A stretch of DNA of 64,000 nt from Candidatus Velthaea sp. (lineage in GTDB: Bacteria > Vulcanimicrobiota > Vulcanimicrobiia > Vulcanimicrobiales > Vulcanimicrobiaceae), in contig JBEKHC010000005.1 of the NCBI GenBank assembly GCA_050012475.1, positions 1-64,000 of the forward strand, in the 5' to 3' direction. Shown piece after piece: positions 3,912-56,984 of the stretch. Position 1 is the first letter of the stretch. Every line of letters starts with the position of its first letter. A model generated the notes under the pieces. The model saw only the letters and a program-made list of their open reading frames with translations. It was not told the DNA's origin and searched no databases. The translations under genes and the position numbers were made by a program.

Positions 3912-5420
3912 ATGTTGAAAATCGACGAGTCCGTGTCCCCCGCGCAGAAACTTTGGGAGCCCTTTGGCGCTCCGATCGTGACCGCGGACGACTACATTGC
4001 ATCGCTGCGGGGTCGCGGGCTCAGGGTGTTCTTCATGGGCGAGCCTGTCGCCGAGCCCGTCGATAATCCCGTTATTTGGCCGTCCATCAACGCGATGGCG
4101 GAGACGTATCGGCTGGCCACGGAACGACCGGAACTGGCCGCTGCACGGCGCGAAGACGGCAAGCTGGTCAATCGTTTTCTCCATATCCCGACGAGCCCCG
4201 CTGACCTGCTCGCCAAACACGATATGCAGCGCGAATTGGGCCGCCGCACCGGGACCTGTTTTCAGCGTTGCGTTGGTATGGACGCGATCGCGACGCTGCA
4301 CTCGGTCACCTTTGAGATGGACGCAAAATTCGGAACCGCGTACGCGCGACGTTTCCGCGCTTTTCTCGAGCGCGCGCAAGACGCGAACATCATCATCGGC
4401 GGAGCGATGACCGATCCGAAAGGCGATCGCTCGAAACCCCCGCATCAACAGACCGATCCCGATCAGTTCCTGCACGTCGTCCGCCGCGACGAGAACGGCA
4501 TCTACGTGTCGGGAGCCAAAATGCACCAGACGGGTGCGGTGAACTCGCACTGGATGATCTTCATGCCGACGATGCGGCTGGGCGAAGGGGATCGGGACTG
4601 GGCGATCATCGGCGCGCTTCCGGTGACGGCGCCTGGCGTGACGTACATCATGGGCCGGCAAACCAACGACATGCGCATCGTCGACGGCGGCGTGCTTGAC
4701 GCGGGGAACGCGCAGTTCGCCGGTCAGGAGGCGCTCGTCGTGTTCGAGAACGTCTTCGTCCCGAACGAGCACATCTTCATGGACGGCGAGATCGGGTTCG
4801 CATCGACCGTCGTCGAGCGCTTCACGACGTACCACCGGTCGTCGTATGCCTGCAAGACCGGGCTCGGCGACGTCATGATCGGGGCCGCCGCGGCGGCCGC
4901 CGAACTCAACGGGCTCGAAAAAGTACGGCACATCCAAGACAAGCTCATCGAGATGACCCATCTCAACGAGACGATGTATTCGAGCTGCGTGGCCGGCGCG
5001 ACGCGCTCGAAAACCGAGGCCTCCGGCGTTCAAATCAACGACGTGATGCTCTCGAACGTGGCCAAGCAAAACGTCACGCGCTTTCCGTACGAGATCGCCC
5101 GGCTGGCGCAAGACATCGCCGGCGGCATCATCGTGACGATGCCCTCGGAAAAAGATCTCGAGCACGACGAGATCGGCCCGCTGGTCCGCAAATACATGCA
5201 GGGTCAGGACGGCGCCGACCCCGTCGACCGGATGCGGGTGATGCGCCTCATCGAAAACATGACGATTGGCCGCAACGCCGTCGGCTACCTGACGGAGAGC
5301 ATGCATGGCGCGGGTTCGCCGCAGGCGCAACGCGTCGAGATCGGCCGGCGCATGGACCTCGAAGGCAAGAAGAACTTAGCCTACCATCTTGCCGGAGTCG
5401 CCGCAAAACCGAAAGTTTAA
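3912..5420 (+). CDS. abfD: 4-hydroxybutyryl-CoA dehydratase / vinylacetyl-CoA isomerase ([4Fe-4S]/FAD)
   Basis: [12 protein letters not shown] (two Cys ligands), YHRSSYACK (His and Cys ligands), [22 protein letters not shown]. Confidence 0.88.
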
Positions 5421-6655
5421 AAACGTTCGCCGTTCGCGCCGGTCTGCGCGTCGCGGTGGCGCCGGAGTTCGAGCTTGGCCACCGTCGCGCGGTGCACTTC
5501 GTCTGGCCCGTCGGCTAACCGCAGCGAGCGCGCATTTGCCCACAGCGCCGCCAGGCCAGGATCCTCGGCGACGCCCGCGCCGCCGAAGGCCTGGATCGCG
5601 CGATCGATCACCCGCAGCGCCATGTTCGGCGCGACCACTTTGATCATCGCGATGTCCGTGCGCGCCGCTTTGTTGCCGGCGCGGTCCATGAGGTCGGCTG
5701 CGCGATGCGTCAACAGCCGGGCCTGATCGATCTCGATCCGCGAGTCGGCGATCCATTCGCCGATCACGCCTTGTTCGGCCAGCGGCTTGCCGAACGCGAC
5801 CCGCTCGGTGACGCGCTTGCACATGAGTTCCAGCGCGCGTTCCGCGCCCCCGATGAGCCGCATGCAGTGATGAATGCGGCCCGGCCCCAAACGGCCCTGG
5901 GCGATCTCAAACCCGCGGCCCTCGCCCAACAATACGTTCGCGCACGGGACGCGCACGTTGTCGAAGCGCATCTCGGCGTGGCCCTGCGGCGCTTCGTCGT
6001 AGCCGAAAACCGTCAACGCGCGGACGATCGAAACGCCCGGCGTGTCCATCGGCACGAGCACCATCGACTGCGCGAGATGGCGCGCCGCGGCAGGATCGGT
6101 CTTGCCCATGAAAATCAAGATCCGACAGCGCGGATCCGGTGCGCCCGTCGTCCACCATTTGCGTCCGTTGATGACGTAGTCGTCACCGTCCCGTTCGATG
6201 CGCGCCTGGATGTTCGTCGCGTCCGAGGAGGCGACGTCGGGTTCGGTCATGGCGAAGCCGGAGCGAATCTCGCCCCGCAGCAGCGGCTCGAGCCAGCGCT
6301 GCTTTTGTTCGGATGTGCCGTAGCGAACCAGAACCTCCATGTTGCCGGTGTCGGGCGCGCTGCAATTGAAGATCTCGGGTGCGATATACGAGCGGCCCAT
6401 GATTTCGCACAGCGGCGCGTATTCGCGATTCGTCAGGCCCGGGCCGTAGTCGCTGTCCGGCAAGAACAGATTCCACAGCCCGGCGGCACGCGCTTGGGCC
6501 TTCATCTCGTCCATCACCGGCGGGATCGTCCAGCGATCTGCGAACGCGGCGTGCTCTGCCCAGTAGCGGCGTTCGCCCGGTTCGACGACGTCGCGCACGA
6601 ACGCGCGCAGCCGCGACTCTAATTCGATTGCGTGAGGACGAACGTCGGCCGGCAT
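5417..6655 (-). CDS. Acyl-CoA dehydrogenase, ACAD10/11 / LvaC-like subfamily
   Basis: [61 protein letters not shown]. Confidence 0.92.
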
Positions 6656-6800
6656 CGGTTCGCTTTTCGGCGGGAGACCGGGCCAAACATGCGCCCCTCG
6701 TTACGCGTGCGCGATCCTCTCGTTGGCGGAGGATCGGCCGTGCGCCACGCGAAGCCGTCGACCCATCGCCGGTTTCCGGCCGCTCGGAGGTTCGCGCGCG

Positions 6801-7610
6801 TTGCCGTTCGTCGCTCTTGATGATCTCAACGTCTTCTACGATTTGAGCGGTCCCGAAAACGCTCCGATCGCAATGCTTGCGAACTCGTTGGGAACGAACG
6901 TCCATATGTGGGACGCGCAGATCGCGGGATTGTCGGCAACGCATCGTATCTTGCGCTTCGACATGCGCGGACACGGACTGACGGAAGCCGGTTCGCGTTC
7001 GGCGCCGTCGATCGCGGATTTCGCCGATGACGCCGCGCACTTGCTCGATGCGTTGGGGCTGCGCTCCGTTTCGTTCGTCGGCGTGTCGGTGGGCGGGATG
7101 ATCGGGCAGCGTTTCGCGGCGGCTTATCCCGAGCGCGTCGAGGCCCTGGTGCTCTGTTCGACCGCGAGCCGGATCGGGACCGCCGAGACGTGGGCCGCAC
7201 GCATCGACGCGGTGCAACAGGGCGGCATGCGAGCGATCGTCGCAGCGGTGCTCGAGCGCTGGTTCACGCCGCGCGCACACGCCGGAAATCCCGTGTTGGT
7301 CAAGGGTTTCGGGACGATGATCGAACGCACGCCGGCGGCAAGTTACCTCGCGGCTTGCCGCGCGATTCGCGATGCCGATTTGCGGGCGGACGACGCGAAG
7401 GTGCGCTGTCCGACGCTGGTGATCGTCGGAGCCGAAGATGCAACGACCACGCCCGCGATGGCCGGCGAAATGTGCGCGGCGATTGCCGGCGCGCGGCTCG
7501 AAGTCGTCGAGGCGTGCGCGCACCTGCTGTGCGCCGAGGCGCCGGCGGCGTTCGACGCCGTGCTGCTGCCGTTTTTGCGCGAGCACGCACGCAGGCTTCG
7601 GGCAGGCTGA
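6801..7610 (+). CDS. pcaD: 3-oxoadipate enol-lactonase-like alpha/beta hydrolase (candidate lactonase)
   Basis: NSLGT..MWD.Q, RFDMRGHG, nucleophile GVSVGG, ERWFT, AHL. TTG start at 6801 follows GGAGG; stop overlaps the next ATG. Confidence 0.8.
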   Translation: MPFVALDDLNVFYDLSGPENAPIAMLANSLGTNVHMWDAQIAGLSATHRILRFDMRGHGLTEAGSRSAPSIADFADDAAHLLDALGLRSVSFVGVSVGGMIGQRFAAAYPERVEALVLCSTASRIGTAETWAARIDAVQQGGMRAIVAAVLERWFTPRAHAGNPVLVKGFGTMIERTPAASYLAACRAIRDADLRADDAKVRCPTLVIVGAEDATTTPAMAGEMCAAIAGARLEVVEACAHLLCAEAPAAFDAVLLPFLREHARRLRAG

Positions 7611-9193
7611 TGGCCGCCCACGATCGCGGGCCCGGTTACGTTCCGCTCGAGCCGACGGCATTTTTGCGCCGCTCGGCGCGCGTCTTCGGCGATCGCGTCG
7701 CCGTGATCGATGACGACGCGCGGTTCACGTATGCGCAATTTTCCGAACGGGTCAACCGGATCGCCGGCACGTTGATCGACCTCGGCATTCGCCCGGGTGA
7801 CCGCGTCGCGGTCCTCGCGCCAAACACCCACGTTATGCTGGCGCTGCATTACGCGCTTCCGCTCGCCGGCGCGGTCATCGTCGCGCTCAACACGCGGCTT
7901 TCGGCGGGCGAGCTGGCCGCGATCGTCAACCATGCCGGCGCCGATCTGCTCGTGTACGATTACGAGCTCGAAGCGGTCGCACGCGAACTCATCGGTCTCG
8001 GCGGCCGCTCGATGCGCGGCATTCGCTGCGGCGACGCGTCCAGCGAGTTCGAGCAGCTGGTTGCGGCGGGATCCGCGAAAGGACAGCCGCCGCACGACGA
8101 GATGGGCATGATCGCGCTCAATTACACGAGCGGGACGACCGGGAAGCCCAAAGGGGTCATGTACAGTCATCGCGGCGCGTATCTGCAAGCGTTGGCGATG
8201 GCCTTTCACACGCAGCTCGATTCGGGTTCGGTGTATTTGTGGACGCTGCCGATGTTCCACTGCAGCGGATGGTGCTTCACCTGGGCCGTGACCGCGGCTG
8301 GAGCAACGCATCGCTGCCTTCGCAAGCCCGATGCGGCGCTCATTTGGCACCATCTGCGGGAGTCGGAGATTTCCCATCTGTGCGCCGCGCCCACGGTGCT
8401 GGTCATGCTCGCCAACCACGAAGCGGCGAAGGCCGGGAAGCCCGCTCGGCCGGTCCGGATTTATACCGGCGGCGCTCCGCCCAGCCCAGCTTTGCTGCAG
8501 CGCACCGCCGAGCTCGAGATCGACGTGTTTCATCTCTACGGTTTGACCGAAACCTATGGCCCGGCCGTCATCTGCGAGTGGCGCGCGGAATGGAATGCGC
8601 TATCGATCCCCGCTCAGGCCGAACTCAAGGCGCGTCAGGGCGTGGGCAATATTGTGACGCAAGAAGCGCGCGTCGTCGACTTCGACGGGCGCGACATTTC
8701 CGCTGACGGCGTCGCTCAGGGTGAGATCGCGCTGCGCGGCAACAACGTGATGCTCGGGTATTATCGCGACCCGGAGGCGACGGCGGCTGCGGTTCCCGAC
8801 GGCTGGTTTCGTACCGGCGACATCGGTGTCATGCACCCCGACCGCTACATTCAAATCACCGATCGTTCGAAGGACGTCATCATCTCCGGCGGTGAAAACA
8901 TTGCGTCGATCGAGATCGAGCAGATGCTCGAACGGCATCCGGACGTGCTGGAAGTTGCCGTCGTCGCCGGTCCGGACCCGACCTGGGGCGAGGTTCCGAT
9001 TGCGTTCGTCACCTTGCGGCCGGGGGCTTCGGCCGACGAGGCGATGCTCGTCGCCTACGCGCGCGAACACATTGCGCGCTTTAAAGCGCCCAAGCGCGTC
9101 ATCTTCGGAGACCTTCCCAAAACCGGGACGGGCAAGATTCAGAAATTTGCTTTGCGCGACCGCGCCAAGGCGTTGTTCGGCGCGACGGCGTGA
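7610..9193 (+). CDS. Acyl-CoA synthetase (AMP-forming), LvaE-like
   Basis: NYTSGTTGKPKGV, YLWTLPMFHCSGW, YGLTETYGP, GWFRTGD, DVIISGGENI, PKTGTGKIQK. Confidence 0.92.
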   Translation: MAAHDRGPGYVPLEPTAFLRRSARVFGDRVAVIDDDARFTYAQFSERVNRIAGTLIDLGIRPGDRVAVLAPNTHVMLALHYALPLAGAVIVALNTRLSAGELAAIVNHAGADLLVYDYELEAVARELIGLGGRSMRGIRCGDASSEFEQLVAAGSAKGQPPHDEMGMIALNYTSGTTGKPKGVMYSHRGAYLQALAMAFHTQLDSGSVYLWTLPMFHCSGWCFTWAVTAAGATHRCLRKPDAALIWHHLRESEISHLCAAPTVLVMLANHEAAKAGKPARPVRIYTGGAPPSPALLQRTAELEIDVFHLYGLTETYGPAVICEWRAEWNALSIPAQAELKARQGVGNIVTQEARVVDFDGRDISADGVAQGEIALRGNNVMLGYYRDPEATAAAVPDGWFRTGDIGVMHPDRYIQITDRSKDVIISGGENIASIEIEQMLERHPDVLEVAVVAGPDPTWGEVPIAFVTLRPGASADEAMLVAYAREHIARFKAPKRVIFGDLPKTGTGKIQKFALRDRAKALFGATA

Positions 9194-9206
9194 GCGGGCA
9201 TCCGTA

Positions 9207-9974
9207 GTGTCCGCTTCGCTCGCGATGCGTGGGAAGGTCGCGCTCGTGACGGGTGCTTCGGAGGGCCTGGGGCGGCATTTTGCCCGGACGCTGGCCGATG
9301 CGGGCGCGCGGGTCGTGCTCGGCGCGCGACGAGCCGAGAAGCTTGCCGACGCGGTTGCGGAGATTGCGGCCGGGGGCGGAGACGCGCTGGGCGTCACCAT
9401 CGATGTCACGAGCGACGCCGGCGTCGCGGAGGCCTTTCGCGAAATCGATCGTCGGACGGGCCCCGTCGACGTCGTCGTGAACAACGCCGGCACCACCATC
9501 ACGAAGTCCCTGCTCGACATGAGCGAACGCGAGTGGGACAACGTGCTCGATACGAACCTCAAAGGCGCCTGGCTGGTAACGCGCGAGGCCGCCCGACGGC
9601 TCATCGCGGCCAAGAAGCCGGGAACCATCGTCAACATCACGTCGATTTTGGGCGAACGCGTCGCGGGCAACCTTACGGCGTACACGGCCTCCAAGGCCGC
9701 GTTGACGCAGCTGACCAAAGCTTCGGCGCTCGAACTCGCGCGTCACGGAATTCGCGTCAACGCGTTAGCGCCCGGCTACATCCACTCGAGCCTCAACGAC
9801 GATTTCTTCGCCTCGCCCGCCGGCGAAGCGCTCATCAAGCGCATCCCGCAGCGCCGGCTCGGAACGTTAAGCGATCTCGACGCCCCGCTGCTGCTGTTGG
9901 CCTCGGACGCTTCACCGTTCCTCACCGGTGCTGTTTTGGCGGTGGACGGAGGCCATTTGGTGAGCTCGCTGTGA
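9207..9974 (+). CDS. Short-chain dehydrogenase/reductase, LvaD-like
   Basis: TGASEGLG, NNAG, YTASK, VNALAPGY; start could alternatively be 9225. Confidence 0.9.
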   Translation: MSASLAMRGKVALVTGASEGLGRHFARTLADAGARVVLGARRAEKLADAVAEIAAGGGDALGVTIDVTSDAGVAEAFREIDRRTGPVDVVVNNAGTTITKSLLDMSEREWDNVLDTNLKGAWLVTREAARRLIAAKKPGTIVNITSILGERVAGNLTAYTASKAALTQLTKASALELARHGIRVNALAPGYIHSSLNDDFFASPAGEALIKRIPQRRLGTLSDLDAPLLLLASDASPFLTGAVLAVDGGHLVSSL

Positions 9975-11005
9975 ACGTAGCACGTCCAGGCTCGCGCGGC
10001 GGAGCGGCGTGGACCGGCGACTCGCCGCTCGCGCGTTGGCTCGCGCAAGCCTCCGGCGCGCCCGCGACGATCGCGCAGGTCGTGCGCCTGGGCGGCGGTG
10101 CGATTCAGCAGAATTGGCTGCTCGATGTGACACTCGACGGTCGCCACGTGCAGTTCGTCTTGCGCACCGATGGGCCGTCGTCGCTCGATTTGAGTCACAC
10201 GCGGGCGCACGAGTTCGCGATTCGCAAAGTCGCCTTCGCTGCGGGCGTCAACGTGGGCGAACCGCTCTGGCTGTGTGAAGACCGGTCGGTGATCGGCACC
10301 CCGTTTTTCGTCATGACGCGCATGGGCGGCACCGCGGATGCCGTGCGCGTGGTGCGCGACGTGCAGTTGGGCGGCGACCGCGCGACGCTTCCCCAGCGTT
10401 TGGGCGCTCAACTCGCGCGCATCCATGCGATTCGGCCGCCGCAGCCGGACCTGTCGTTTTTATCGCTGCCGGGTCGTTCGCCGGCGCTGGACTTCGTGGC
10501 CTGGAGCCGGTGCGTGCTCGACCGGTTCGCGGATCCGCGACCGGTGCTCGAATGGGGCGTACGGTGGCTCGAGCGCAACGCTCCGGAGGCCGGCGAACTG
10601 GTGCTTTGCCATCACGACTTCCGCACCGGAAATTACATGCTCGACGAGTCCGGGATTACCGCGATTCTCGATTGGGAGTTTGCCGGCTGGGGCGACGCTG
10701 CGGAAGATCTGGGCTGGTTTTGCGCCGCGTGCTGGCGTTTCGGCGCATACGAACGCGAAGCCGGCGGGATTGGGTCGCGCGAAGCGTTCTTTGCCGGTTA
10801 CGAGCGCGAATCCGGAACGCGCGTCGACCGGGCTGCCGTGCAGTATTGGGAAGTTGCCGCGCACGTCCGCTGGGGAATTATCGCCGTGCTGCAGGCGCAG
10901 CGGCATCTGTCGGGTGCCGAATCATCGCTCGAACTCGCGCTGACCAGTCACCTCGTGCCGGAGCTGGAGTTCGAGATTCTCGCGCTGACCGAGCAAGGAC
11001 GGTGA
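9971..11005 (+). CDS. Phosphotransferase (APH / ACAD10 kinase-like), LvaA-like
   Basis: LGGGAIQQNW, VLRTD, HHDFRTGNY, ILDWEFAGWGD..EDLGW; GTGA overlap with the SDR stop. Confidence 0.9.
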   Translation: MNVARPGSRGGAAWTGDSPLARWLAQASGAPATIAQVVRLGGGAIQQNWLLDVTLDGRHVQFVLRTDGPSSLDLSHTRAHEFAIRKVAFAAGVNVGEPLWLCEDRSVIGTPFFVMTRMGGTADAVRVVRDVQLGGDRATLPQRLGAQLARIHAIRPPQPDLSFLSLPGRSPALDFVAWSRCVLDRFADPRPVLEWGVRWLERNAPEAGELVLCHHDFRTGNYMLDESGITAILDWEFAGWGDAAEDLGWFCAACWRFGAYEREAGGIGSREAFFAGYERESGTRVDRAAVQYWEVAAHVRWGIIAVLQAQRHLSGAESSLELALTSHLVPELEFEILALTEQGR

Positions 11006-11577
11006 TGCGCACCCGGCCGACGGGCTCGGAGCTGCTGTCGACCGCGCAAACGGTCGTGCGCGACGAGATCCTGCCGCATGTTCCGTCCGAAGAACGAGCG
11101 ACGGTGCTTGCGATCCAAACGGCGATGAGGCTCGCCGCGCGCCGGCTGGATCTCGGGGACGCGCCGTCGGCCGAAGAACTCGAACAGCTGGAGGCGGCGC
11201 GCGGCGCGCTGCGGGGCAAACTCTTGGAGTACTTGCCGCAGGCCCGTCAATACAGTGCGCGGCTGGCGGCGAAAGCCATCGCAATTGCCAAGAATGAGCT
11301 CGTGTACGGCAGCGCTCCCGAACGCGAGGAACTCGATCGACTGACCCGTCTGCTTGGCGAGAAGCCGCACTTGGCAAGCACGGCGCGCGACGTTCACGAA
11401 GGGCTGCGCCAACTCTATGTCCGGCTGGCGGACGATATCCGCGCGGGACAGGCGGACCCCGGAACCCCGGCCTGGGCTCTGACGCGCGCGCACCTCGATC
11501 GAATGACGCGCCAAGCGCTCAATGAGAGCAACCCGGCGTATTTGAAGGCGCGCGCCGGATTGGTTCGCCCGCAATAG
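11005..11577 (+). CDS. DUF6285 / LvaB-like helical partner protein with an internally duplicated module
   Basis: RPTGSELL...RDEILP N-terminus and LADDIRAG...LNESNPAYL C-terminus; TGATG-coupled to the phosphotransferase. Confidence 0.75.
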   Translation: MRTRPTGSELLSTAQTVVRDEILPHVPSEERATVLAIQTAMRLAARRLDLGDAPSAEELEQLEAARGALRGKLLEYLPQARQYSARLAAKAIAIAKNELVYGSAPEREELDRLTRLLGEKPHLASTARDVHEGLRQLYVRLADDIRAGQADPGTPAWALTRAHLDRMTRQALNESNPAYLKARAGLVRPQ

Positions 11578-11924
11578 CCTCGGCTCGGCGGACGACCGCA
11601 ACTGCCATCGAAGTGCGCGCACGCAGTGAGCCGTCCCGGACCGGCGCCGATCGATTCGCCAACTTGGGGCTCACGGCGATCGAACGAAAACGAATGCCGC
11701 GAGCAGTCGGATCGCTTGCGATGCCGGTGTTTCGGGCTGCTGACGATCCGGTCCGAGCGGAAACGAATGAGGAGGCTTGGCGCCATCTTGGAATGCACCC
11801 TCGCGCGAAGCGCGAACGTATGGAACTTCCTGCCAGCCGGCTTGACCGGCTTGCGCGGGTTGGTCGCGACCGGAGGGCGGAGTTCCCCCGGATCGAGACC
11901 GGGGCGGTCCGGCGCTGCCGGCGG

Positions 11925-12302
11925 ATGGACGTGAACGCTGGGGAGGCGATGGTGGACTTCTGGTTCGGCAGTTCCCAATGTGCGCAGCCGCTGCGCACCT
12001 GGTCGCGCGTGAACGAGGCGGTCGGCGAGGCTCTCTGCGCCTCGGCCAAGGCCGTCTTGCGCAAACAAGCCGAGCTGGCACGCGATTGGGCCGAACGCGT
12101 TGCCGTGGATTCGCGCAGCTCGAAGCTCACCGTTGAGGGCGCCCATCAGGCCTACGATCTCGTGGTTGCCTACACCGAAGCGAGCGCGCAATGGTGCGAA
12201 ACCTGGCTCGCCATGCTGCGAAGCATCGACCCCCAACGGGCCGCGAGCCGCCGCCCAGCGCCCGGACAGGAGCCCGGCGCGGCGCTCACCGAGCTGCCCT
12301 AA
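11925..12302 (+). CDS. Hypothetical helical protein, possibly PHA-granule associated (phasin-like)
   Basis: Trp/Ala-rich amphipathic ORF whose stop overlaps the phaE ATG (TAATG); start uncertain. Confidence 0.5.
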   Translation: MDVNAGEAMVDFWFGSSQCAQPLRTWSRVNEAVGEALCASAKAVLRKQAELARDWAERVAVDSRSSKLTVEGAHQAYDLVVAYTEASAQWCETWLAMLRSIDPQRAASRRPAPGQEPGAALTELP

Positions 12303-13375
12303 TGACGGCCGACAAGAAACCGGGCGCAAGCTCGCTGTGGGAAAATTGGCTCGACACGCTCAAGGCTGCTTCGGTTCCGCTGGGCAGCACGGCGATGATG
12401 GAGCAGTGGCAGCGCGCGATGGGCGCAGCCGCGAAAACCACGCCGGCCGATTTTTTTCAGGCGTCGATGGGCGATCAGCAAGCCCTGCTTCGGCTGACCG
12501 AACTGGCAGCGGAAACGATACGCTCCGCCGGCAGCCCCGCCGACGGGGCAGCCGTGGACTCAGCGGAATCGCTCGAACGGTCGGCGGAGAACTTCCGCGC
12601 AAAATTTTCGGTTAGCCCGATGACCAACGCGCTCGATCTCTGGCTCGCGAACGCGGCGCAATTCCAGCGCAGCGCCGAGCCGTGGACGCAGTTCATGCAG
12701 CGTTCGATGAGCCTCGCTGCGATGATGGGCAGTCCGGCGGGCGCGGGCGATCCGCTTGGTGACGCGCTCGAACGCAGCTTCGGATTGCTGGCAAATTTTC
12801 CGGGCATCAACCAAGAATTGCCGCAGCTGCTGACGGAAGCCGCGGCGAATGCGGCGGCGCTCGCGGCAGCGCGCGAAAACTACCGCGTCATCCTGGCAGC
12901 AACATGGCAGCGGGCGTTCGAAGAGATCGGGCGCGAAGTCCTCAAACGCACTGCCGAGCGCCGGCCGGTTCAAACGTCGGCGGCGCTGCTCTCGTTATCG
13001 ACCACCGTCGCCGACCGCGTGTTCGTCGAAACATTCAGCTCGCAGCGCTATGTCGAAGCGCAGGAGCGATTGTCGACGGCGCTTGCCGATCAGCGCCGCC
13101 ACGAGATGAAGGTCGTGGATCTGTTCGCCCGGTTCGGACATTTTCCGACCCGCCGCGACCTCGACGAAGTTGTGCGTGAAATCAGCGTGCTGCGCCGCGA
13201 AGTGCATGCGCTCAAACGAACGTTGCGTTCGGCTGCGAGCGTGCCCCCGGCCGGCGCGGCCGGCGCTCCGCCGTCGGCCAATGGCGGTGCAGCACCGGCC
13301 GCTGCACCACGCTCGGCGCGTAAGACGGCGCGCAAGAGTCCCGGTTCCGCAAAAAAGGCCGAACATGGCGCGTGA
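12302..13375 (+). CDS. phaE: Class III PHA synthase subunit PhaE
   Basis: C-terminal FPTRRDLDEVVREISVLRREVHALKR coiled coil typical of PhaE; directly upstream of and overlapping phaC. Confidence 0.8.
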   Translation: MTADKKPGASSLWENWLDTLKAASVPLGSTAMMEQWQRAMGAAAKTTPADFFQASMGDQQALLRLTELAAETIRSAGSPADGAAVDSAESLERSAENFRAKFSVSPMTNALDLWLANAAQFQRSAEPWTQFMQRSMSLAAMMGSPAGAGDPLGDALERSFGLLANFPGINQELPQLLTEAAANAAALAAARENYRVILAATWQRAFEEIGREVLKRTAERRPVQTSAALLSLSTTVADRVFVETFSSQRYVEAQERLSTALADQRRHEMKVVDLFARFGHFPTRRDLDEVVREISVLRREVHALKRTLRSAASVPPAGAAGAPPSANGGAAPAAAPRSARKTARKSPGSAKKAEHGA

Positions 13376-14462
13376 CCCGAGCGCCGATTTGGAACTGCTG
13401 TTCTCGGGTTTGGGGGCGGTGGCCGTTCGCGAGTACAGCGAGATGCTGCGCAAAGCGCTCAAAGGCACCCACGTTCTGAGCGAACTGCGGCAGAGCGACT
13501 TGGATAGCGCGACGACGCCCAAAGAACTCGTCTATTCCGACGGCCATTTGAACTTGTTTCACTATCTGCCGGCGCGGCCCGCCGCAACGTTGTTACCGCC
13601 GATCCTCATCGTGTACTCCCTGATCAACCGCTACTACATGATCGACTTGCAGCCCGATCGCTCGCTGGTCCGCCGGCTGCTGGAGTTGGGCGCCGATCTC
13701 TACGTGATGGATTGGGGGTATCCGACGCCCCTCGACCGCTTTACCACGATGGAAGATCATATCGGCTATCTCGGAGACTGCGCGGATGTCGTGCGCGAGC
13801 GGCATGGTTCGGAGCGCGTGAACCTGCTGGGCATTTGCCAAGGCGGCTATTTCACGCTGTGTTATGCCGCGCTCAACCCCGAACGCGTCGGCAGCCTCAT
13901 CACGATGATTACGCCGCTCGATTTCGACCTGGACGACACGATCTTGGCGAGGGTTGCGAAACATACCGATACCGACCGGCTCGTCGACACGTTGGGAAAC
14001 ATTCCCGGCTCGTTGATGCACCAACAATTTTTGCTCCGCAGTCCGTTCGCGCAAAACGTTCAGAAGTACGCCGACCTGATGAATTTATTCGACGACCGCG
14101 AACAATTGATGACATTCCTGCGCATGGAACGCTGGATCAACGACAGCCCCGATCATCCGGGCGAGACGTTTCGCAAGTGGCTCAAAGACGGCTACCAAGA
14201 GAACAAGCTCGTCAAAGGAACGTTCGAACTCGGCGGCCAGCCGGTCTCGCTCGCCAACGTGCGGATGCCCGTACTCAACATGTTCGGCCAGCGCGATGAC
14301 ATCGTCGAGCCGAAGTCATCCGCCGCGCTCGAAAAACACGTCGGCACTTCCGACTACACCGCCCGGTCGTTTCCGGTCGGACACATCGGGATGTACGTCA
14401 GCACGAAAGTGCAAAAAGAGTTGCCGTCGACGATCATCGAGTGGCTCCGAGCCCGGAGCTGA
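13365..14462 (+). CDS. phaC: Class III poly(R)-hydroxyalkanoate synthase subunit PhaC
   Basis: TPKELVY, PILIVYSLINRYYMIDLQPDRSLV, lipase box GICQGG, FLRMERW, DDIV, GHIG; about 365 aa. Confidence 0.95.
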   Translation: MARDPSADLELLFSGLGAVAVREYSEMLRKALKGTHVLSELRQSDLDSATTPKELVYSDGHLNLFHYLPARPAATLLPPILIVYSLINRYYMIDLQPDRSLVRRLLELGADLYVMDWGYPTPLDRFTTMEDHIGYLGDCADVVRERHGSERVNLLGICQGGYFTLCYAALNPERVGSLITMITPLDFDLDDTILARVAKHTDTDRLVDTLGNIPGSLMHQQFLLRSPFAQNVQKYADLMNLFDDREQLMTFLRMERWINDSPDHPGETFRKWLKDGYQENKLVKGTFELGGQPVSLANVRMPVLNMFGQRDDIVEPKSSAALEKHVGTSDYTARSFPVGHIGMYVSTKVQKELPSTIIEWLRARS

Positions 14463-14467
14463 CCCGC

Positions 14468-15334
14468 GTGATCGGGCCGCCGCCCTTTGCTGCGACGGAT
14501 TTCGATCTGCAGCTTCCCGGCGGACGAGTCCGGGCCCATCGCTTGGGCGACCCCGAGGGTGAACTCGTCCTCTGCGCACCAGGCCTGTCGGCCAATTCGC
14601 GGTGGTTCGATTTCCTGGGCGAACGGATCAGCGAAACCGGCCGCCAAGTCGTGGCGCTCGATCTGCGCGGGCGCGGCCACAGTGCGGTGACCGCACCCGG
14701 AACGTACGGCTTCGCAAACCACGCGCACGACATTTTCGCCGCGGCCGAAGCGCTGGGTGCAACGCGTTTCGACCTCATCGGTCATTCGATGGGGGCGTAC
14801 GTCGCGATGGAAGCCGCCGCGCTCGATGCCGGCTCGCGGCTGCGCCGGCTGGTCCTCATCGACGGACTGGGCATACCGCGCTACGCCGCGGTGAAATCGA
14901 TCCTGCAAAATCTGCAGCGGCTCACCCACGTTTACGCCTCGCCCGAAGACTATCTGGCTTCGATCCGCAAGCTCGACTTGATCGATTCGTGGAACGAGTA
15001 CTGGGAGCGCTGCTATCGGTACGAACTCGTCCCGGTGCCGGGCGGCGTGCGCGCGCGCACGAACCCGGCGCCCGTCAACGAAGATTTCAGCTACGGCAAC
15101 CTCCACGATGCGCGCCGGCTTTGGAAGTGCATCGCGGTGCCGGTGTTAGCGTTGCGTGCGTTGCGCCCGATGACGGGGCGCAACGGATTCATCGTCACCG
15201 AGTTCGACTTCCGTCACTTCGCTCGAACCGTGCCCTCGGCGACAGCGTTCGAGATCGATGCCAATCATTACGACATCATGACCCATGCCAAAACGCTCGA
15301 AGCCGTCCGCCGTTTTCTTGACACGACGCAATGA
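14468..15334 (+). CDS. Alpha/beta hydrolase (esterase/lipase family)
   Basis: DLRGRGHS, GHSMG nucleophile elbow, ANHY; begins just after the phaC stop. Confidence 0.85.
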   Translation: MIGPPPFAATDFDLQLPGGRVRAHRLGDPEGELVLCAPGLSANSRWFDFLGERISETGRQVVALDLRGRGHSAVTAPGTYGFANHAHDIFAAAEALGATRFDLIGHSMGAYVAMEAAALDAGSRLRRLVLIDGLGIPRYAAVKSILQNLQRLTHVYASPEDYLASIRKLDLIDSWNEYWERCYRYELVPVPGGVRARTNPAPVNEDFSYGNLHDARRLWKCIAVPVLALRALRPMTGRNGFIVTEFDFRHFARTVPSATAFEIDANHYDIMTHAKTLEAVRRFLDTTQ

Positions 15335-21675: not shown

Positions 21676-23493
21676 TTACCGCAATTGCGTGAGCGGTGCG
21701 GCGGGAACGTGATGCAGCGCTCGTTGCGCTTCGTAGCTCGCGCGTGCGGCCGCGAGTTCGCCCGCATCAACGCAGACGCCGGCGTAGGCTCCGTCGGTGA
21801 GCGGCGTCCCCAGACGCGGCGGCAGCACGTCGTCGGCGGTGGTCCAGCCTTGGCGGACATTGATGCGACGTTTGCGTTCCCAGGTGCGTTGAGCGCTCGC
21901 GCGCAGCGCGTCGGCGTCAAGCGGCAGTCCGGTCACCGCGCACCACAAATCCGCTGCTTCCGCGTAAAAATCCTCGAAGCAGTCGCGGATGAATTTGCAG
22001 AGCACGAGCGAGTCCCAAATGGCGGCGTAATCCTCGGCATCGATCGTTGCGCGCGCGCGTTCGGCAGCGCCGCGCAGCGTGCCGGGGGCGCGCAAGTCCG
22101 CATCGTACGTCGCGGCGCGATTGTGGCACGCGCCGCGCGTACAGACCGCTAACCCCAACGCATACGTCGGCAGCGCTCGCGGCTCGTAGCCGGGAAGCTC
22201 TAATCCTTTGGCGTGCATTGCGAAAGTAACGGAGCCGCCGCCGATCTGTTCGGCCGCAGCGCGGACACCGAGCGACAAAAGGCCGCCGACACCGGTGCGC
22301 GTCGCGATTGCTTCGATCGCCGGAGCGAGCACCGCGGCGTTGCCGAACGTCAGCGGCGTGCCGAACGCATCGCGCGCGATGAGCCCGTGCTCCGCGCACT
22401 CCATCGCGAACGCGATCGCGCTGCCGGTTGAGATCGTGTCGAGTCCGTAGCGATCGCAGCAGAAGATCGCGTCGAGCACGGCGTCGAGATCGTCGATGCC
22501 GCAGTTCGGTCCGAACGCCCAGACCGATTCGTATTCGCTGGCCGCAGCCGTTTTGCGATCGCGCTCGCGGCGCACGTACATGTGCTCGCACTGCACGGGA
22601 CAGCCTGCACAGCCCGAACGCAGTTCGACATAGGCGCCTTTGGATTCGCGTGCGCGCTCGGGCGTGACGGCTTCGACCCCCGCGAAACCCGAAGCGGTGA
22701 AGTTGCGCGTCGGCAGTTGTCCCATGCGCTGCAGAACGCGCATGTTCGCGCCCGTTCCCAGGATGCGATATTTGGCGGTTTGCGGTCCCAGTGCACGCAT
22801 TTTCAGCGCTTGAGCGAAAACCGCGGTCGCTGCCCCGTCGGCGACGCCGACCGTTCCGCGCGCGTGCAGCGCGATTGCTTTGAGACGTTTGGCGCCCATT
22901 ACGGCGCCCGTGCCGCCGCGGCCGGCTTGCCGCCCGTCGTTCTCGACCGCCGCATAGCGCACACCGCGTTCGCCGGCAAGCCCGATGGCGCAGACGCGCA
23001 GCGTGCGTTCTTGCCGGCGCGCGCGTAGCGCCTGCGTCGTTTCACGCGCCGTCATGCCGAGCAAATCGGCGGCATCGGCGAACACGACGCGTTCGCCGTC
23101 GAGGATGACGGTCGTCCAATGCGCGGCCGCGCCGTAGACGACGAGCGCGGCGAAACCGCAGCGGCGAAGCGCCGCCGACCAATGACTCGACGACAGCCCT
23201 TCGTTGAGCAGTCCGGTCAGCGGCGAAAGCGTCGCCAGCGCATGTTTGTTGGCCGCGGGCACGGGTGTCGCAGCGAACGGTCCGGCGGCGAAGACGATCG
23301 CGTTGTGGGCGCCCAGCGGATCGACCGCGGACAGGCCGCGTTCGTCGAGGTAACGCTCGAGCAGCAGCACCGCCAGACCGACGCCGCCCAGCGCGCCGGC
23401 GAAGTCGGCATCGCCGAGCGCATACCGCCGCGTCGTTTGGGTGGTGAGATCGATTTCGAGCACGTCGCGCGGCCCGGCGTACGCGCTGTTCAT
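21676..23493 (-). CDS. aor: Aldehyde:ferredoxin oxidoreductase (tungstopterin AOR family)
   Basis: SPLTG, GRGGTGAVMGAKRLKAI, CAGCPVQC plus LVLCKF (4Fe-4S ligands), EYES, GLDTISTG, KGLELPGYEPR, RGACH. Confidence 0.92.
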   Translation of the reverse strand: MNSAYAGPRDVLEIDLTTQTTRRYALGDADFAGALGGVGLAVLLLERYLDERGLSAVDPLGAHNAIVFAAGPFAATPVPAANKHALATLSPLTGLLNEGLSSSHWSAALRRCGFAALVVYGAAAHWTTVILDGERVVFADAADLLGMTARETTQALRARRQERTLRVCAIGLAGERGVRYAAVENDGRQAGRGGTGAVMGAKRLKAIALHARGTVGVADGAATAVFAQALKMRALGPQTAKYRILGTGANMRVLQRMGQLPTRNFTASGFAGVEAVTPERARESKGAYVELRSGCAGCPVQCEHMYVRRERDRKTAAASEYESVWAFGPNCGIDDLDAVLDAIFCCDRYGLDTISTGSAIAFAMECAEHGLIARDAFGTPLTFGNAAVLAPAIEAIATRTGVGGLLSLGVRAAAEQIGGGSVTFAMHAKGLELPGYEPRALPTYALGLAVCTRGACHNRAATYDADLRAPGTLRGAAERARATIDAEDYAAIWDSLVLCKFIRDCFEDFYAEAADLWCAVTGLPLDADALRASAQRTWERKRRINVRQGWTTADDVLPPRLGTPLTDGAYAGVCVDAGELAAARASYEAQRALHHVPAAPLTQLR

Positions 23494-23756
23494 CCGCCGC
23501 TCGCCAGGAAGAGCACGCAGGGGCGGTCGGAAGCGTCGAACGGCTCGTCGTCGCCGGTCGCACGGCGGCCGTCGAGCAGCAGCAGATTGGGATGGACGAA
23601 CGACTCGCCGCCGGCGTCGATCACGCTGCCGAGCATCGCCGGACAGCGCTGGGCGAGTTCGCGCACGAGTTCGCGTTTGGTAAGCCGTTCGCCGCCGATG
23701 TCCAAACCTGAGGCGCCGGCGAACACCCGGGCCATCCCGAAGAACTCGACCGTCAT
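23490..23756 (-). CDS. moaD: MoaD/ThiS sulfur carrier protein
   Basis: 88 aa, VEFFG start, C-terminal SGG; overlaps both neighbours. Confidence 0.85.
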   Translation of the reverse strand: MTVEFFGMARVFAGASGLDIGGERLTKRELVRELAQRCPAMLGSVIDAGGESFVHPNLLLLDGRRATGDDEPFDASDRPCVLFLASGG

Positions 23757-25714
23757 ACCGCGGCCGGGACCGTTTCGACGATCCGCACGTCGCCGGCAAG
23801 CGCCGCGTCGTAGCCGCCCAGCGCGTCGATCGCGGCGCGCAGCGCCGGGTCGCGCATCGTGGCGATCAATGCGCCGATGCGGGGATCATCGAGCGCGTCG
23901 GCCCGCAGCGCGAGCTCGTACGGTTCGGTCGCCAAGGGCACGAAGTCGCAGCCCAGCGCACGCGCGGCCGCCAGAATGCCCAACCCGCAGTCGGCGCTCC
24001 CGTCGGCGACGAGCGCGGCGACCGCCAAGTGGGTGAATTCGAGCCGGTCGTAGCCCTCGATCTGCGTCGACGCGAGTCCGTCGCGGGCCAACAGCGCGTC
24101 GAGCAGCATGCGCGTTCCGGCGTCGCGCTGACGGTTGACGTAGCGTGCGCGCCGCGCGACGACGTCGGCGAGCGAACGCAGTCCCAGCGGGTTGCCCCGC
24201 GCCACGATCAGCCCCTGTTCGCGCTGCGCGAACGCGATGAGCGCGACGCGGGCATCCGGGATGTAGCGCCGCACGGCGACGTCGTTATACGTTCGGCTTG
24301 CCGGATCGAGCACGTGCGTGCCGGCGACGTGCGTCGAGCCCGTGCGCAGCGCAACCAGACCGGCGATGCTGCCGACGTTGGCCGACACCAGTTCGAGCCC
24401 GCGATCCGCCAGCGCGCCGGCCAGCAAGTCGATCGCGACGTCGTGGCTGCCGACGGCCAGCAAGGTGCGTTCGATCGACGCGATCCCGCGCAGCGCGCGG
24501 GCCGGCAGCGTCGTTCCGGGATGTGCGCCTTCGGTGAAGCGCGAGATCGTGACGATCGCGTTGGCCCGCGATAACGAGGTGATCACCCCCGCCCCGCGCC
24601 GCAGCGGAACCGCTACGATGCGCCCACCGACCCGGGCAGCGACCACGCGCACGAATTCATCTTCTCCGAGCGGTGAAAAGAGCTTGCGCGTCAGCGTCAC
24701 CTCGAACGTGGCGGGATCGGGCGGATCGGAGTGGGCGAGCCGTTCGATCAGCGGCGCCACGAACAGGTCGGCGCAGATCGCAGCGCTGACCGGGTACCCC
24801 GGGATGCCCAACAGCGGGACCCGCCGGCCCGCGGATTCGTGCGCCAGCGCCAGCACGAGCGGGTGGCCGGGGCGGATCGCCACGCCGTGGACGAGCAGCT
24901 CACCGAAGCGCTCGAAAATGCGCGCGGTGAAATCATGGCGTCCCGCGGAGCTGCCGGCGTTGACGAGAACGATGTCGCAGGCCTCGATCGCGGCGCCGAC
25001 CGCCGTCGCGAGCTGCGCCGGATCGTCGGGCACCCGCGGATAGCGAACCGGCAGGCCGCCGTAGCGGCGCACGGCGGCCGCCAACAGCACGCCATTCGAA
25101 TCAAGGATCGCGCCGCGTTCGGGCCGCGCGACGGCCGGATCGACGAGTTCGTCGCCGGTCGTGACGATCGCCACGCGCGGCCGGCGCACCACCGCGACCT
25201 CGACGATGCCGCCCGACGCGATCGCCGCCAAATCGGCCGGACCCAGCCGCCGGCGCTTGGGCACGATCGCTTCGGTCGCCACGATGTCTTCGCCGATCGG
25301 CCGCACGTGGGTCCAGGGCGCAACGGGTTCGCGAATCGCGACCGTCCCGTCGCCGAGCGGCTCGAGATCTTCGACCATGATGACGGCGTCGGTCTGCGGC
25401 GGCAGCGGGTCGCCGGTATCGACCACGAAGGCGTCGCCGTCGAGCCGGAGGATGACCGGCGCGCCCTCGGACGCACCGCGCGTCGCCGCTGCCGCAACCG
25501 CGATCCCGTCCATCGCGCAGGCGTGGTAATGCGGCGACGAGAGCCGGGCGAAGACCGGCTGCGCGGTGACGCGATCGAGCGCGTCGTCTAGCGCCACGAT
25601 CTCGATGCCGGCGTTGGCGACGCCGGCCGCGTCGAGCGCAGCGGTGAATCGCTGACGCGCCGCGTCGAGCGGGATGTCGGTCAAAAATGCGGCGTCGCCA
25701 AACCGGCTGCTCAT
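23753..25714 (-). CDS. moeA: MoeA fused to a C-terminal PBP/LysR substrate-binding-like domain
   Basis: CAMDGIAV, VDTGDPLP, TGDEL, GIPGYPVSA; then GSHD, GSIAGL, REQGLIV, YVNRQRDAGTR. Confidence 0.92.
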   Translation of the reverse strand: MSSRFGDAAFLTDIPLDAARQRFTAALDAAGVANAGIEIVALDDALDRVTAQPVFARLSSPHYHACAMDGIAVAAAATRGASEGAPVILRLDGDAFVVDTGDPLPPQTDAVIMVEDLEPLGDGTVAIREPVAPWTHVRPIGEDIVATEAIVPKRRRLGPADLAAIASGGIVEVAVVRRPRVAIVTTGDELVDPAVARPERGAILDSNGVLLAAAVRRYGGLPVRYPRVPDDPAQLATAVGAAIEACDIVLVNAGSSAGRHDFTARIFERFGELLVHGVAIRPGHPLVLALAHESAGRRVPLLGIPGYPVSAAICADLFVAPLIERLAHSDPPDPATFEVTLTRKLFSPLGEDEFVRVVAARVGGRIVAVPLRRGAGVITSLSRANAIVTISRFTEGAHPGTTLPARALRGIASIERTLLAVGSHDVAIDLLAGALADRGLELVSANVGSIAGLVALRTGSTHVAGTHVLDPASRTYNDVAVRRYIPDARVALIAFAQREQGLIVARGNPLGLRSLADVVARRARYVNRQRDAGTRMLLDALLARDGLASTQIEGYDRLEFTHLAVAALVADGSADCGLGILAAARALGCDFVPLATEPYELALRADALDDPRIGALIATMRDPALRAAIDALGGYDAALAGDVRIVETVPAAV

Positions 25715-26949
25715 GGCGCGATGACCCGCACGGTCGTGCCGGCGGCGGCGCCGCTGCTGTCCAACGGAATGACGATCAGGCCGTCGGCGCGGATCAGCGT
25801 GAAGATGAGATTGGACTTGCCGAAAATGGGCGTAGCGCGAACCTCACCGGAGCTCGACGTCTGAAGATTGCACGCAACGTAGTCTTCCCGGCCCGGCCGC
25901 GAACGCACCGGAGCCGTCAGCACGGCCGCGCACGACTCGGCCGCCCGGACGTCCGGCTGGGCCTCGCCCCCGAGTTGCCGGACGAGCGGCCCCACCAGCC
26001 GCCAAGCCACGACGAGCGCGCTGGCCGGATTTCCCGGCAGCCCGATGACCGGCTTGCCGTCGGCCAGCGCGATTAGCGTCGGTTTCCCCGGTTTGATCGC
26101 GATGCCGTGGACGAGAATTCCCGGCGGCCCCAGGCTTGCGACCACTTGCGCGGTGAGATCGCGATACGAGACCGACGACCCCGCCGAGAGCACGAGCGCA
26201 TCGCTGGCGGCCAGTGCCGCGCGGGCCGCCGCCGCGAGCCGGGGCAGATCGTCGGCGACGATCCCGGCGTGGACCGGGACCCCGCCGGCGGCGCTGATGA
26301 CCGCGGCGATCGTGGAGGCGTTCACGTCGCGAACTTGCCCGATCGCCGGCTGCACGCCCGGTCCCACGACTTCGTCGCCGGTCGAGAGGATCGCAATCCG
26401 CGGCCGCGCGTACACGCGCACCGCCGGACAGCCCAGGGCGGCGAGGCCGCCCAGATCCTGGGCCCGCAACCGGCGGCCGGCCGGCACGGCGACGTCACCT
26501 CTGCTGATGTCTTCGCCCACAGCCACGACGTTCTCGCCCGGCGCCGCCGCGTCGAGAATCTCGATCTCGTCGCCGTGCGCGTTCGTATCTTCGACCATCA
26601 CGACGGCGTCGGCGCCGGCGGGCAGCATTGCGCCGGTGTGAATGCGCGCCGCGGCGAGCGGCTCGACCCGCAACGCCGGCGCGCTGCCCATGGCGATCTC
26701 GCCGCACAGCCGCAGATATGCGGGCGCCGATTCGGACGCTCCGAACGTATCGGCGGCGAGCACCGCGTAGCCGTCCATCGTCGAACGTGCGAATGCCGGC
26801 AAGGTCTCGCCGGCACGGACTTCAGCCGCCGTGACGCGGCCCAGAGCGTCGGCGGTCGCGACCGTTTCGGCACTCGAGACGGGCGCGCAGCGCGCCAGCA
26901 GGATGGCGAGCGCATCCTGCGGCGGCACGACCGTAAACAACTCGTTCAC
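25711..26949 (-). CDS. moeA: Molybdopterin molybdo/tungsto-transferase MoeA (gephyrin-like)
   Basis: RSTMDGYAV, IHTGAMLPAGADAVVMVE, STGDEV, IKPGKP, GLPGNP. Confidence 0.94.
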   Translation of the reverse strand: MNELFTVVPPQDALAILLARCAPVSSAETVATADALGRVTAAEVRAGETLPAFARSTMDGYAVLAADTFGASESAPAYLRLCGEIAMGSAPALRVEPLAAARIHTGAMLPAGADAVVMVEDTNAHGDEIEILDAAAPGENVVAVGEDISRGDVAVPAGRRLRAQDLGGLAALGCPAVRVYARPRIAILSTGDEVVGPGVQPAIGQVRDVNASTIAAVISAAGGVPVHAGIVADDLPRLAAAARAALAASDALVLSAGSSVSYRDLTAQVVASLGPPGILVHGIAIKPGKPTLIALADGKPVIGLPGNPASALVVAWRLVGPLVRQLGGEAQPDVRAAESCAAVLTAPVRSRPGREDYVACNLQTSSSGEVRATPIFGKSNLIFTLIRADGLIVIPLDSSGAAAGTTVRVIAP

Positions 26950-27002
26950 TTCGTTCCGTTCAACGCTGCTCGAGCGCGCGCATTTGCGGGTACAACGCGG
27001 CG

Positions 27003-27266: not shown

Positions 27267-27355
27267 ACGCACGGAGCCCGGCGCCGGCGGCCGCGGCAGG
27301 CCGTGTCGGTTAGCCTTACCGAAACGACTGTTCCGTTTCGCGCTCGCTGGAGCTG

Positions 27356-29086: not shown

Positions 29087-29087
29087 C

Positions 29088-54183: not shown

Positions 54184-54260
54184 CGGCCCCGCTCGAGAAT
54201 CGCCCGCGGGCGTACGACGAGCCGGATCTCTCCGATGCCGCTGAAAGGTAAACACTACTC

Positions 54261-55775: not shown

Positions 55776-55790
55776 CTCCGGCGCGCGACG

Positions 55791-56980: not shown

Positions 56981-56984
56981 GTTT

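Follow-up and report, generated by a model that had tools for sequence, protein, structure and literature searches.

A natural gene run joining lva-type genes to a class III polyhydroxyalkanoate synthase in Vulcanimicrobiaceae

Conservation of the lva-phaEC gene run

The stretch of DNA analysed here (hereafter the window) is 64,000 nucleotides long and comes from Candidatus Velthaea sp. of the family Vulcanimicrobiaceae (assembly GCA_050012475.1, contig JBEKHC010000005.1, positions 1 to 64,000); the genome is 94% complete. It carries a plus-strand run in which counterparts of Pseudomonas lva genes share one gene order with phaE and phaC, the genes of a class III polyhydroxyalkanoate (PHA) synthase. 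The conserved unit is ligase-SDR-kinase-lvaB-orfX-phaE-phaC-hydrolase, where SDR denotes a short-chain dehydrogenase/reductase. This natural lva-phaEC arrangement is real and conserved, and all of its parts belong to known families. It is narrower than the system proposed in an earlier sequence-only reading of the window, which had also taken in a neighbouring 4-hydroxybutyryl-CoA dehydratase (AbfD) and a lactonase-like hydrolase. We regard it as rather probable, though far from settled, that the run is a storage-and-use operon for 4-oxo and 4-hydroxy acids in which the lva-type enzymes and PhaEC are coupled.

Conservation was surveyed in 348 genomes of the family, the window's own and 347 others. 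Of these, 13 have the kinase and 5 have this PhaC, whereas AbfD is confined to a single one, the genome of the window. The synteny search that had been suggested with the sequence-only reading shows the link between lva genes and phaEC to be kept in three other genera (G093, G094 and G288), where acs-sdr-aph-lvaB-(orfX)-phaE-phaC-hyd stand in the same order and on the same strand, and on the metagenome contig L136 (69-74% identity), where phaE starts about 17 bp after lvaB. Five relatives carry the kinase at 64-71% identity (these three, G011 and G003), and none of them has lvaC in the run. The ligase is 70-74% identical in G093, G094 and G288, the SDR is 71-74% identical in four relatives, and the distance from the kinase gene to phaC is 1.6-2.4 kb. 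The two proteins also appear to vary together: kinase and PhaC identities are correlated (rho 0.79, Mantel p 0.0014) over 11 pairs that are kin and not independent, one of them discordant, and eight kinase/PhaC cluster pairs agree in the size of their longest contig, an indirect sign of co-location. Of 401 genomes sampled from the phylum, 4 carry this PhaC, with no new one among them. In a literature search confined to listings and the openings of abstracts, with few subscription journals covered, engineered combinations of these genes are described, and neither a natural lva-phaEC operon nor a fusion of LvaB with a phasin was found.

The operon is extended in the relatives by a second ligase, a 2-hydroxyacyl-CoA lyase (767 bits, cut-off 600) and a Rieske protein, and a tetR gene opens it. 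A pyrroloquinoline quinone (PQQ) alcohol dehydrogenase gene is also part of the operons of G094 and G288, and an aldehyde dehydrogenase gene of that of G094.

Organisation of the locus

All the genes named in the sequence-only reading are in place with open and intact frames, and their families are borne out. That reading overlooked orfX and the 347-bp gap which separates lvaB from orfX in the window. The features of the locus are as follows.

3912..5420, plus strand: abfD, 4-hydroxybutyryl-CoA dehydratase, predicted to be of the oxygen-tolerant type; accessory, own transcription unit
5417..6655, minus strand: ACAD10/11-type acyl-CoA dehydrogenase, putative 4-phosphoacyl-CoA phosphate-eliminating enzyme that would stand in for LvaC
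6801..7610, plus strand: PcaD-like alpha/beta hydrolase, putative lactonase; accessory
7610..9193, plus strand: acs, LvaE-like acyl-CoA synthetase (ligase); conserved core
9207..9974, plus strand: sdr, LvaD-like predicted 4-oxoacyl-CoA reductase, start perhaps at 9225; conserved core
9971..11005, plus strand: aph, LvaA-like predicted 4-hydroxyacyl-CoA kinase; conserved core
11005..11577, plus strand: lvaB, LvaB-like kinase partner (DUF6285) of 190 aa with an extra N-terminal helical module
11925..12302, plus strand: orfX, phasin-like amphipathic helical protein, fused to LvaB in relatives
12302..13375, plus strand: phaE, class III PHA synthase subunit; conserved core
13365..14462, plus strand: phaC, class III PHA synthase; conserved core
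14441..15334, plus strand: hyd, alpha/beta hydrolase, putative PHA or oligomer hydrolase; conserved core

Start and stop codons overlap at the pcaD-acs, sdr-aph, aph-lvaB, orfX-phaE, phaE-phaC and phaC-hyd joints. Because abfD and the ACAD gene converge tail to tail and the latter is directed away from the plus-strand run, the locus must comprise at least three transcription units. A scan for promoters and terminators at the locus returned nothing usefully above shuffled sequence.

In four peat metagenomes, each taken from a different study, contigs cover the locus in all 30 bins, and single contigs span the abfD/ACAD (5277-5982), pcaD/acs, lvaB/orfX and orfX/phaE joints. These bridging contigs rule out a chimeric assembly. 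A recent foreign island is not indicated by composition either, as GC content at third codon positions is 0.74-0.83 in the cluster and 0.78-0.86 in the flanks. The named close homologues come from Vulcanimicrobiaceae/Eremiobacterota.

Lva-type proteins of the run

The sequence-only reading had equated five families at the locus with LvaABCDE of Pseudomonas putida. We compared them with a proxy, a Pseudomonas plasmid record (L216) that holds a complete lvaR-lvaABCDEFG operon and an NCBI-annotated lvaB. Four of the five genes are reciprocal counterparts of LvaA, LvaB, LvaD and LvaE: the kinase is 49% identical to LvaA over 340 aa, the DUF6285 protein 39% to LvaB over 59 aa (it also aligns with the annotated LvaB), the SDR 57% to LvaD, being the top match of that protein in the genome, and the ligase 47% to LvaE. 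The equation fails for the fifth, the acyl-CoA dehydrogenase, as described below. The ligase scores 639 bits against PRK08162, below the cut-off of 677, and a paralogous ligase on contig C56 of the same genome is slightly better against LvaE (481 versus 465 bits), so that assignment of the window ligase as LvaE leans on its position too. The functions of ligase and SDR are thus probably those of LvaE and LvaD, to judge by these similarities. In L216 the operon adjoins an integrase and a recombinase, and the canonical lva operon therefore appears to be mobile.

The kinase is single-copy in the genome, and its HHDFRTGN (catalytic) and LDWE motifs align with the ACAD11 kinase. The LvaB-like protein, which matches PF19802, is encoded directly 3' of the kinase gene in an overlapping frame. 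A complex of the two is predicted with a score of 0.90, against 0.00 for the best of 3 controls; the threshold for this score is reached by 116 of 157 solved pairs versus 2 of 215 mismatched pairs. The runs share at least 97% of contacts, and the partner has a predicted local distance difference test score (pLDDT) of at least 88. The models support binding of the LvaB-like protein to the kinase, in agreement with a pull-down of LvaA with LvaB cited in PMC6692424.

The locus thus resembles the lvaRABCDEFG operon as described for P. putida in its LvaA, B, D and E counterparts, in the order of kinase and small partner and in the predicted LvaA-LvaB complex. However, the genome of the window lacks an LvaC orthologue, and LvaR, LvaF and LvaG (three proxy queries) found no tblastn match in it at E 1e-4. 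The locus also differs in that its relatives have a TetR regulator, the PHA synthase genes lie within the same run, and LvaB has a greater length and, in many cases, a phasin-like domain joined to it. Another use of the kinase pair is suggested by a Cupriavidus pinatubonensis plasmid (L219:7926-14989), where an LvaA/LvaB-like pair with no ACAD nearby sits between a DapA-family gene and genes for indolepyruvate oxidoreductase, an SDR and BktB.

An ACAD10/11-type dehydrogenase outside the run

The window acyl-CoA dehydrogenase scores 467 bits to mouse ACAD11 and at most 153 to ordinary ACADs, while the LvaC proxy scores just 195 to ACAD11. It is 36% identical to the LvaC proxy, yet is the top LvaC match in the genome. 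In a quick IQ-TREE tree of 76 rows it falls in a family clade of 24 rows, apart from the LvaC clade of 18 rows with an SH-like approximate likelihood ratio support of 100%; a second operon clade of 31 rows forms the third group. Orthology with LvaC is therefore rejected. The Arg-His-Arg helix (R626/H634/R637) and catalytic D753 of mouse ACAD11, residues named in PMC12440821, are kept in the window enzyme (the alignment being read with a one-residue offset). The LvaC proxy has them too, so that these residues mark the chemistry and not the clade. Bacterial ACAD10-like proteins have been reported to substitute for ACAD10 domains in vitro (PMC11342911). Given this activity and the phosphate-handling residues, the window enzyme would work like LvaC outside the LvaC clade, and we assign it a putative role in phosphate elimination. 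It is comparable to mammalian ACAD10/11 and their stand-alone bacterial orthologues in being far closer to ACAD11 than LvaC is. However, kinase and dehydrogenase are separate proteins here and of different subfamilies, the kinase being LvaA-type with just 52-56 bits to the ACAD11 kinase.

In the four relatives tested (G093, G094, G288 and G011) an ACAD11-type gene is found at 74-80% identity, with no better LvaC match. It lies outside the run in all four, and in G094 it is convergent at the far end of the operon. In G003 the ACAD gene stands head to head with lvaAB, as in the window. Two further family members (G283 and G279) have a conventional sdr-ACAD-kinase cluster with phaEC not nearby. 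At three other loci (L239, L240 and L241, in G086, G087 and G371) an ACAD11-type gene is grouped with a less closely related kinase (40-44%) and a DUF6285 protein that is short, and in G371 this cluster is preceded by genes for a ligase, an enoyl-CoA hydratase, an SDR and a 3-hydroxyacyl-CoA dehydrogenase.

Class III PHA synthase and hydrolase

PhaE matches PF09712 with 86 bits (cut-off 25.7) and TIGR01834 with 75 bits, below the cut-off of 155; PhaC matches TIGR01836 with 402 bits (cut-off 365). The PhaC triad C158, D311 and H340 is invariant across 13 aligned sequences, and with this Cys-Asp-His triad and PhaE the pair fits a class III PHA synthase. The PDB matches include no structure of class III. 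The window PhaC forms a clade of its own (at least 59% identity; the next matches at most 56%). The hydrolase downstream has a GHSMG motif and scores 50 bits to an intracellular PHA depolymerase model with a cut-off of 300. Homologues of 51-58% identity stand at the same place in G093, G094, G288 and G011, while in G368 one lies two genes beyond phaC. The cluster is like other class III pha clusters in its PhaE, its PhaC triad, the phasin-like gene upstream and the hydrolase downstream. It differs from them in its distinct PhaC clade and in that lva-type monomer genes replace phaA, phaB and phaJ. Gaps in phaC of G288 are runs of N and were rejected as evidence of decay.

PHA granules have been reported in cultured Vulcanimicrobium (PMC9758169). 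The genome of the window has another pha locus with a thiolase, an SDR, a synthase of class I/II type and a depolymerase (L003:974-13700, contig C14); its synthase scores higher as class II than as class I, and a DUF3141/PhaC-like protein is also encoded there. On contig C29 (L004:6743-9936) a class I-type synthase is followed by a fusion of MaoC with a phosphate acyltransferase. With a separate pha locus and a further class I-type synthase present, ordinary poly(3-hydroxybutyrate) (PHB) does not require the class III enzyme. Class I-type synthases are also found in 3 of 4 operon-type relatives, which fits a second, specialised polymer system.

OrfX and its fusion to LvaB

OrfX has no Pfam or NCBIfam match of its own, and its predicted model is a helical hairpin for which the fold search gave no match at E 0.001; Atlas matches of OrfX are weak. 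Its family comprises 254 representatives. Among 62 relatives scanned, Phasin_2 is matched under the cut-off in 11 and the PhaE N-terminus in 14, and homologues lie directly upstream of phaE in the plain class III clusters of G368 and G042. In its small size, its amphipathic helices and the position of its gene in pha clusters, OrfX is phasin-like. Many members (P0321, P0323, P0326, P0333, P0345 and others) have a C-terminal helix-hairpin-helix domain, which suggests that they bind DNA as well as granules.

An in-frame fusion of LvaB to OrfX occurs in G093, G094, G011 and 11 of 13 database matches, whereas OrfX is unfused in the window, shortened in G288 and absent in L136. Within the fusion the head is conserved at 61%, the tail at 56% and the linker at 30%. 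Conservation of the tail indicates that it is under selection and is more than a read-through remnant. The model of the fusion (pLDDT 86, predicted template modelling score 0.59) consists of two helical parts with a loose linker. An amphipathic character is seen in 78 of 89 free OrfX members but in 0 of 12 fused tails, which are evenly hydrophobic. Anchoring to a granule via an amphipathic helix of the fused tail is therefore not supported; it is possible that the tail is a hairpin buried in the polyester.

Proposed pathway and coupling of the two halves

In the scheme that we propose, the ligase would convert a 4-oxo or 4-hydroxy acid to its CoA ester, and the SDR would reduce 4-oxoacyl-CoA to 4-hydroxyacyl-CoA, which is the branch point. 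On one branch, PhaEC with OrfX would polymerise 4-hydroxyacyl-CoA into a granule, directly or after isomerisation, and the downstream hydrolase would free the stored monomer from it. On the other, the LvaA-LvaB kinase would phosphorylate the 4-hydroxyl group. Chain growth depends on that hydroxyl, so that the most plausible role of the kinase is to divert the monomer to beta-oxidation; the ACAD10/11-type enzyme encoded outside the operon would then eliminate the phosphate to give 2-enoyl-CoA. The analysis establishes the gene identities and motifs, the conserved order, the fusion and the lack of lvaC, while we infer the substrates, the direction of flux and the polymer of this coupled model. 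The conserved run would suffice to form 4-hydroxyacyl-CoA from a 4-oxo or 4-hydroxy acid and to polymerise it, but contains no dehydrogenase, hydratase, PhaA or PhaB as required for 3-hydroxy monomers; enzymes for these would act in trans, and MaoC-type candidates are present on other contigs. The lyase of the relatives may serve a second, alpha-oxidation route of 4-hydroxy acids: a route of beta- and then alpha-oxidation has been reported (PMC12440821), and the ligase and 2-hydroxyacyl-CoA lyase of the relatives match it.

Engineered pathways provide a precedent. LvaED with PhaC has been reported to yield poly(4-hydroxyvalerate), and LvaEDABC with PhaC a copolymer of 3-hydroxyvalerate (3HV) and 4-hydroxyvalerate (4HV) (PMC9628823). 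The gene sets of these strains, and of one that combines 4HcD with PhaC (PMC13288912), are the same as here for polyesters of 4HV and 3HV or of 4-hydroxybutyrate (4HB). However, the joining in the window is natural, with a synthase of class III and a product that is predicted.

It is less likely, but a serious alternative, that an lva-type operon for catabolism and a class III pha cluster of the ordinary kind were joined once and have been co-inherited as uncoupled neighbours. PhaEC would then make plain PHB or its copolymer with 3HV, and the LvaB-OrfX fusion would come from a lost stop codon. A number of observations weigh against coupling. The lva-pha link has one origin inside one family, and the modules occur alone. 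G011 has the operon run with phaEC missing between lvaB::orfX and the hydrolase, on a contig which stops short of the ligase; in G003, lvaA-lvaB and ACAD occur with no such PhaC; and orfX-phaEC is found without lva genes nearby in G368 and G042, G368 being one of the four relatives with this PhaC. Beyond the family the link is seldom seen: 80 metagenome kinase loci, 40 of them shorter than 8 kb, include ACAD in 58 (31-41% to the window ACAD), SDR in 44, DUF6285 in 36 and ligase in 28, but phaE and phaC in 1 each and abfD and pcaD in none. In the window itself, the 347-bp gap splits the lva half from the pha half and OrfX is free. The loss or shortening of OrfX in L136 and G288 and the lack of amphipathic character in the fused tails point the same way. 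The tetR, second ligase and lyase of the relatives have no orthologue in the window's genome, the class III enzyme is the sole PHA synthase found in G094, and a known synthase uses 4HV-CoA poorly (PMC9628823).

However, mere neighbourhood does not readily account for a linkage that persists across proteins just 64-71% identical, nor for three types of junction (fused, separate and orfX lost) that all keep phaE in line. The conservation of the fused tail also counts against this alternative. Moreover, phaA, phaB and phaJ, which are present in the plain cluster of G042, are missing from the operon, leaving the lva genes as the sole monomer supply.

4-Hydroxy acids form gamma-lactones in acid. 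A bolder form of the coupled model, which we put forward tentatively and think unlikely to hold in full, is a dedicated poly(4-hydroxyalkanoate) organelle. Its class III synthase would have evolved for 4-hydroxyacyl-CoA, storing acids that, left free in acid peat, would turn into diffusible lactones. The kinase would be anchored to the granule by the hydrophobic hairpin fused to LvaB, and phosphorylation would be an on-granule switch between chain growth and beta-oxidation. In the window's species the oxygen-tolerant AbfD could also feed 4HB from crotonyl-CoA into the polymer, with no precursor supplied.

The lva-phaEC operon looks like a natural version, in peat and soil bacteria, of a pathway that has been built by hand. 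PHAs containing 4HB and 4HV are valued materials, and poor activity of synthases on 4-hydroxyacyl-CoA is a stated bottleneck for them (PMC9628823); a synthase clade kept with genes for 4-hydroxyacyl-CoA supply is a direct candidate against it. If the coupled model is true, the lva-type pathway gains a storage role, ACAD11-type enzymes replace LvaC in bacteria and DUF6285 gains a structural role. Should the polymer prove to be plain PHB, what is left is a tidy note on a gene cluster.

AbfD and the lactonase-like hydrolase as local additions

The best PDB matches of AbfD are 4-hydroxybutyryl-CoA dehydratases (669 and 501 bits), against at most 131 bits for HpaB monooxygenases. The catalytic and cluster residues found in the alignments are C116, C120, C314, H308, E273, Y312 and E462, where the reference numbering of the [4Fe-4S] ligands (three Cys and one His) and of the Glu and Tyr is in part presumed. 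Four residues tied to oxygen tolerance in the structure of Nitrosopumilus maritimus AbfD (L77, T102, R441 and N442; bioRxiv 2020.02.05.935528) correspond to L90, T115, R454 and N455, and to judge by this set the window enzyme is of the oxygen-tolerant type. The set occurs in 58 of 82 AbfD-like sequences checked and is common in bacteria, so that its presence alone is nothing out of the ordinary. The window AbfD agrees with the N. maritimus enzyme (PDB 6vjr) in every catalytic and tunnel-closing residue, the difference being that it is bacterial and encoded beside catabolic and PHA genes. It would interconvert 4-hydroxybutyryl-CoA and crotonyl-CoA.

The PcaD-like hydrolase narrowly passes TIGR02427 (269 bits, cut-off 256), has a GVSVG nucleophile motif and may open gamma-lactones as a lactonase. 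The gene was not found in 4 of 5 relatives searched, is elsewhere in the fifth (42%) and is never part of the relatives' operons.

In the sequence-only reading AbfD, the lactonase, the Lva-like genes and PhaEC formed a single system. That they are one selected unit for 4HB-containing PHA, with AbfD supplying 4-hydroxybutyryl-CoA from crotonyl-CoA or draining it, now seems improbable. In its favour are the complete residue sets of AbfD, the report that N. maritimus AbfD feeds up to 12.6 mol% 4HB into the PHA of engineered Cupriavidus necator (PMC13288912), and the recurrence of abfD and pcaD together, solely in near-identical strains (98-99% identity, same-sized contigs). The genome also encodes a second AbfD of anaerobic type beside a CoA transferase, so that 4HB metabolism seems to matter to the organism. 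However, AbfD is found in none of the 347 other family genomes and in none of 60 relatives, 24 of other families included. Among 80 AbfD loci from GTDB genomes, many of them short contigs, the kinase, DUF6285, PhaE and PhaC occur in none; nor, conversely, do AbfD or PcaD occur at the 80 kinase loci. In addition, abfD is a separate, convergent transcription unit. It is therefore rejected as a conserved operon member and seems to be a recent extra in the window's species. As AbfD is unlinked and the lactonase gene is missing from the relatives' operons, the 4HB arm is a species-level add-on and not an organising principle; both are sensible additions, but not part of the inherited unit.

The second AbfD (L001:6443-9688, contig C56) is 52% identical and has the anaerobic-type residues T/S/S/S. 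Its gene is followed by one of the acetyl-CoA hydrolase/transferase family in the clostridial abfD-cat2 style, and the ligase on this contig is 75-76% identical to ligases of two genus relatives. The organism may thus have an aerobic and an anaerobic 4HB isoenzyme. A third AbfD-like gene (L002:7639-9144, contig C12) was rejected, as its product lacks the cluster ligands and is an HpaB-like flavoprotein; it adjoins genes for a sugar ABC transporter, an isochorismatase and a LacI regulator.

Other substrates and surrounding genes

Least probable, in our view, is that the operon serves an acid other than levulinate or 4HV. Examples would be 4-hydroxy acids of longer or branched chain that arise in lipid oxidation, products of diol oxidation by the linked PQQ dehydrogenase, or 3-oxoadipate derived from aromatics via a true PcaD. 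Identities to the Lva proxy of just 39-57%, the missing LvaR, LvaF and LvaG, the lyase, Rieske, PQQ and (in G094) aldehyde dehydrogenase genes of the relatives' operons, the reported action of ACAD11-type enzymes on substrates of C6 and longer (PMC11342911), the PcaD equivalog score and the description of 3-oxoadipate as a levulinate precursor (PMC10164729) would fit this alternative, but searches of the 94% complete genome for beta-ketoadipate partner genes gave neither an intradiol dioxygenase nor, over cut-off, a PcaB or PcaC. The same negative makes a lactonase role of the PcaD-like hydrolase a sensible one. This alternative alters the substrate and not the chemistry, and so overlaps with the coupled model.

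Elsewhere in the window, positions 21679-31877 encode an aldehyde:ferredoxin oxidoreductase, two moeA and an NAD-linked molybdopterin (formate dehydrogenase-like) pair, and the lvaAB locus of G003 is flanked by the same block. Positions 50289-61434 carry inositol-catabolism-like genes (PfkB, KduI/IolB, a thiamine pyrophosphate enzyme and an aldehyde dehydrogenase). A cluster with a PQQ alcohol dehydrogenase lies there too, and this enzyme is just 41-43% like the operon-linked ones of G094 and G288.

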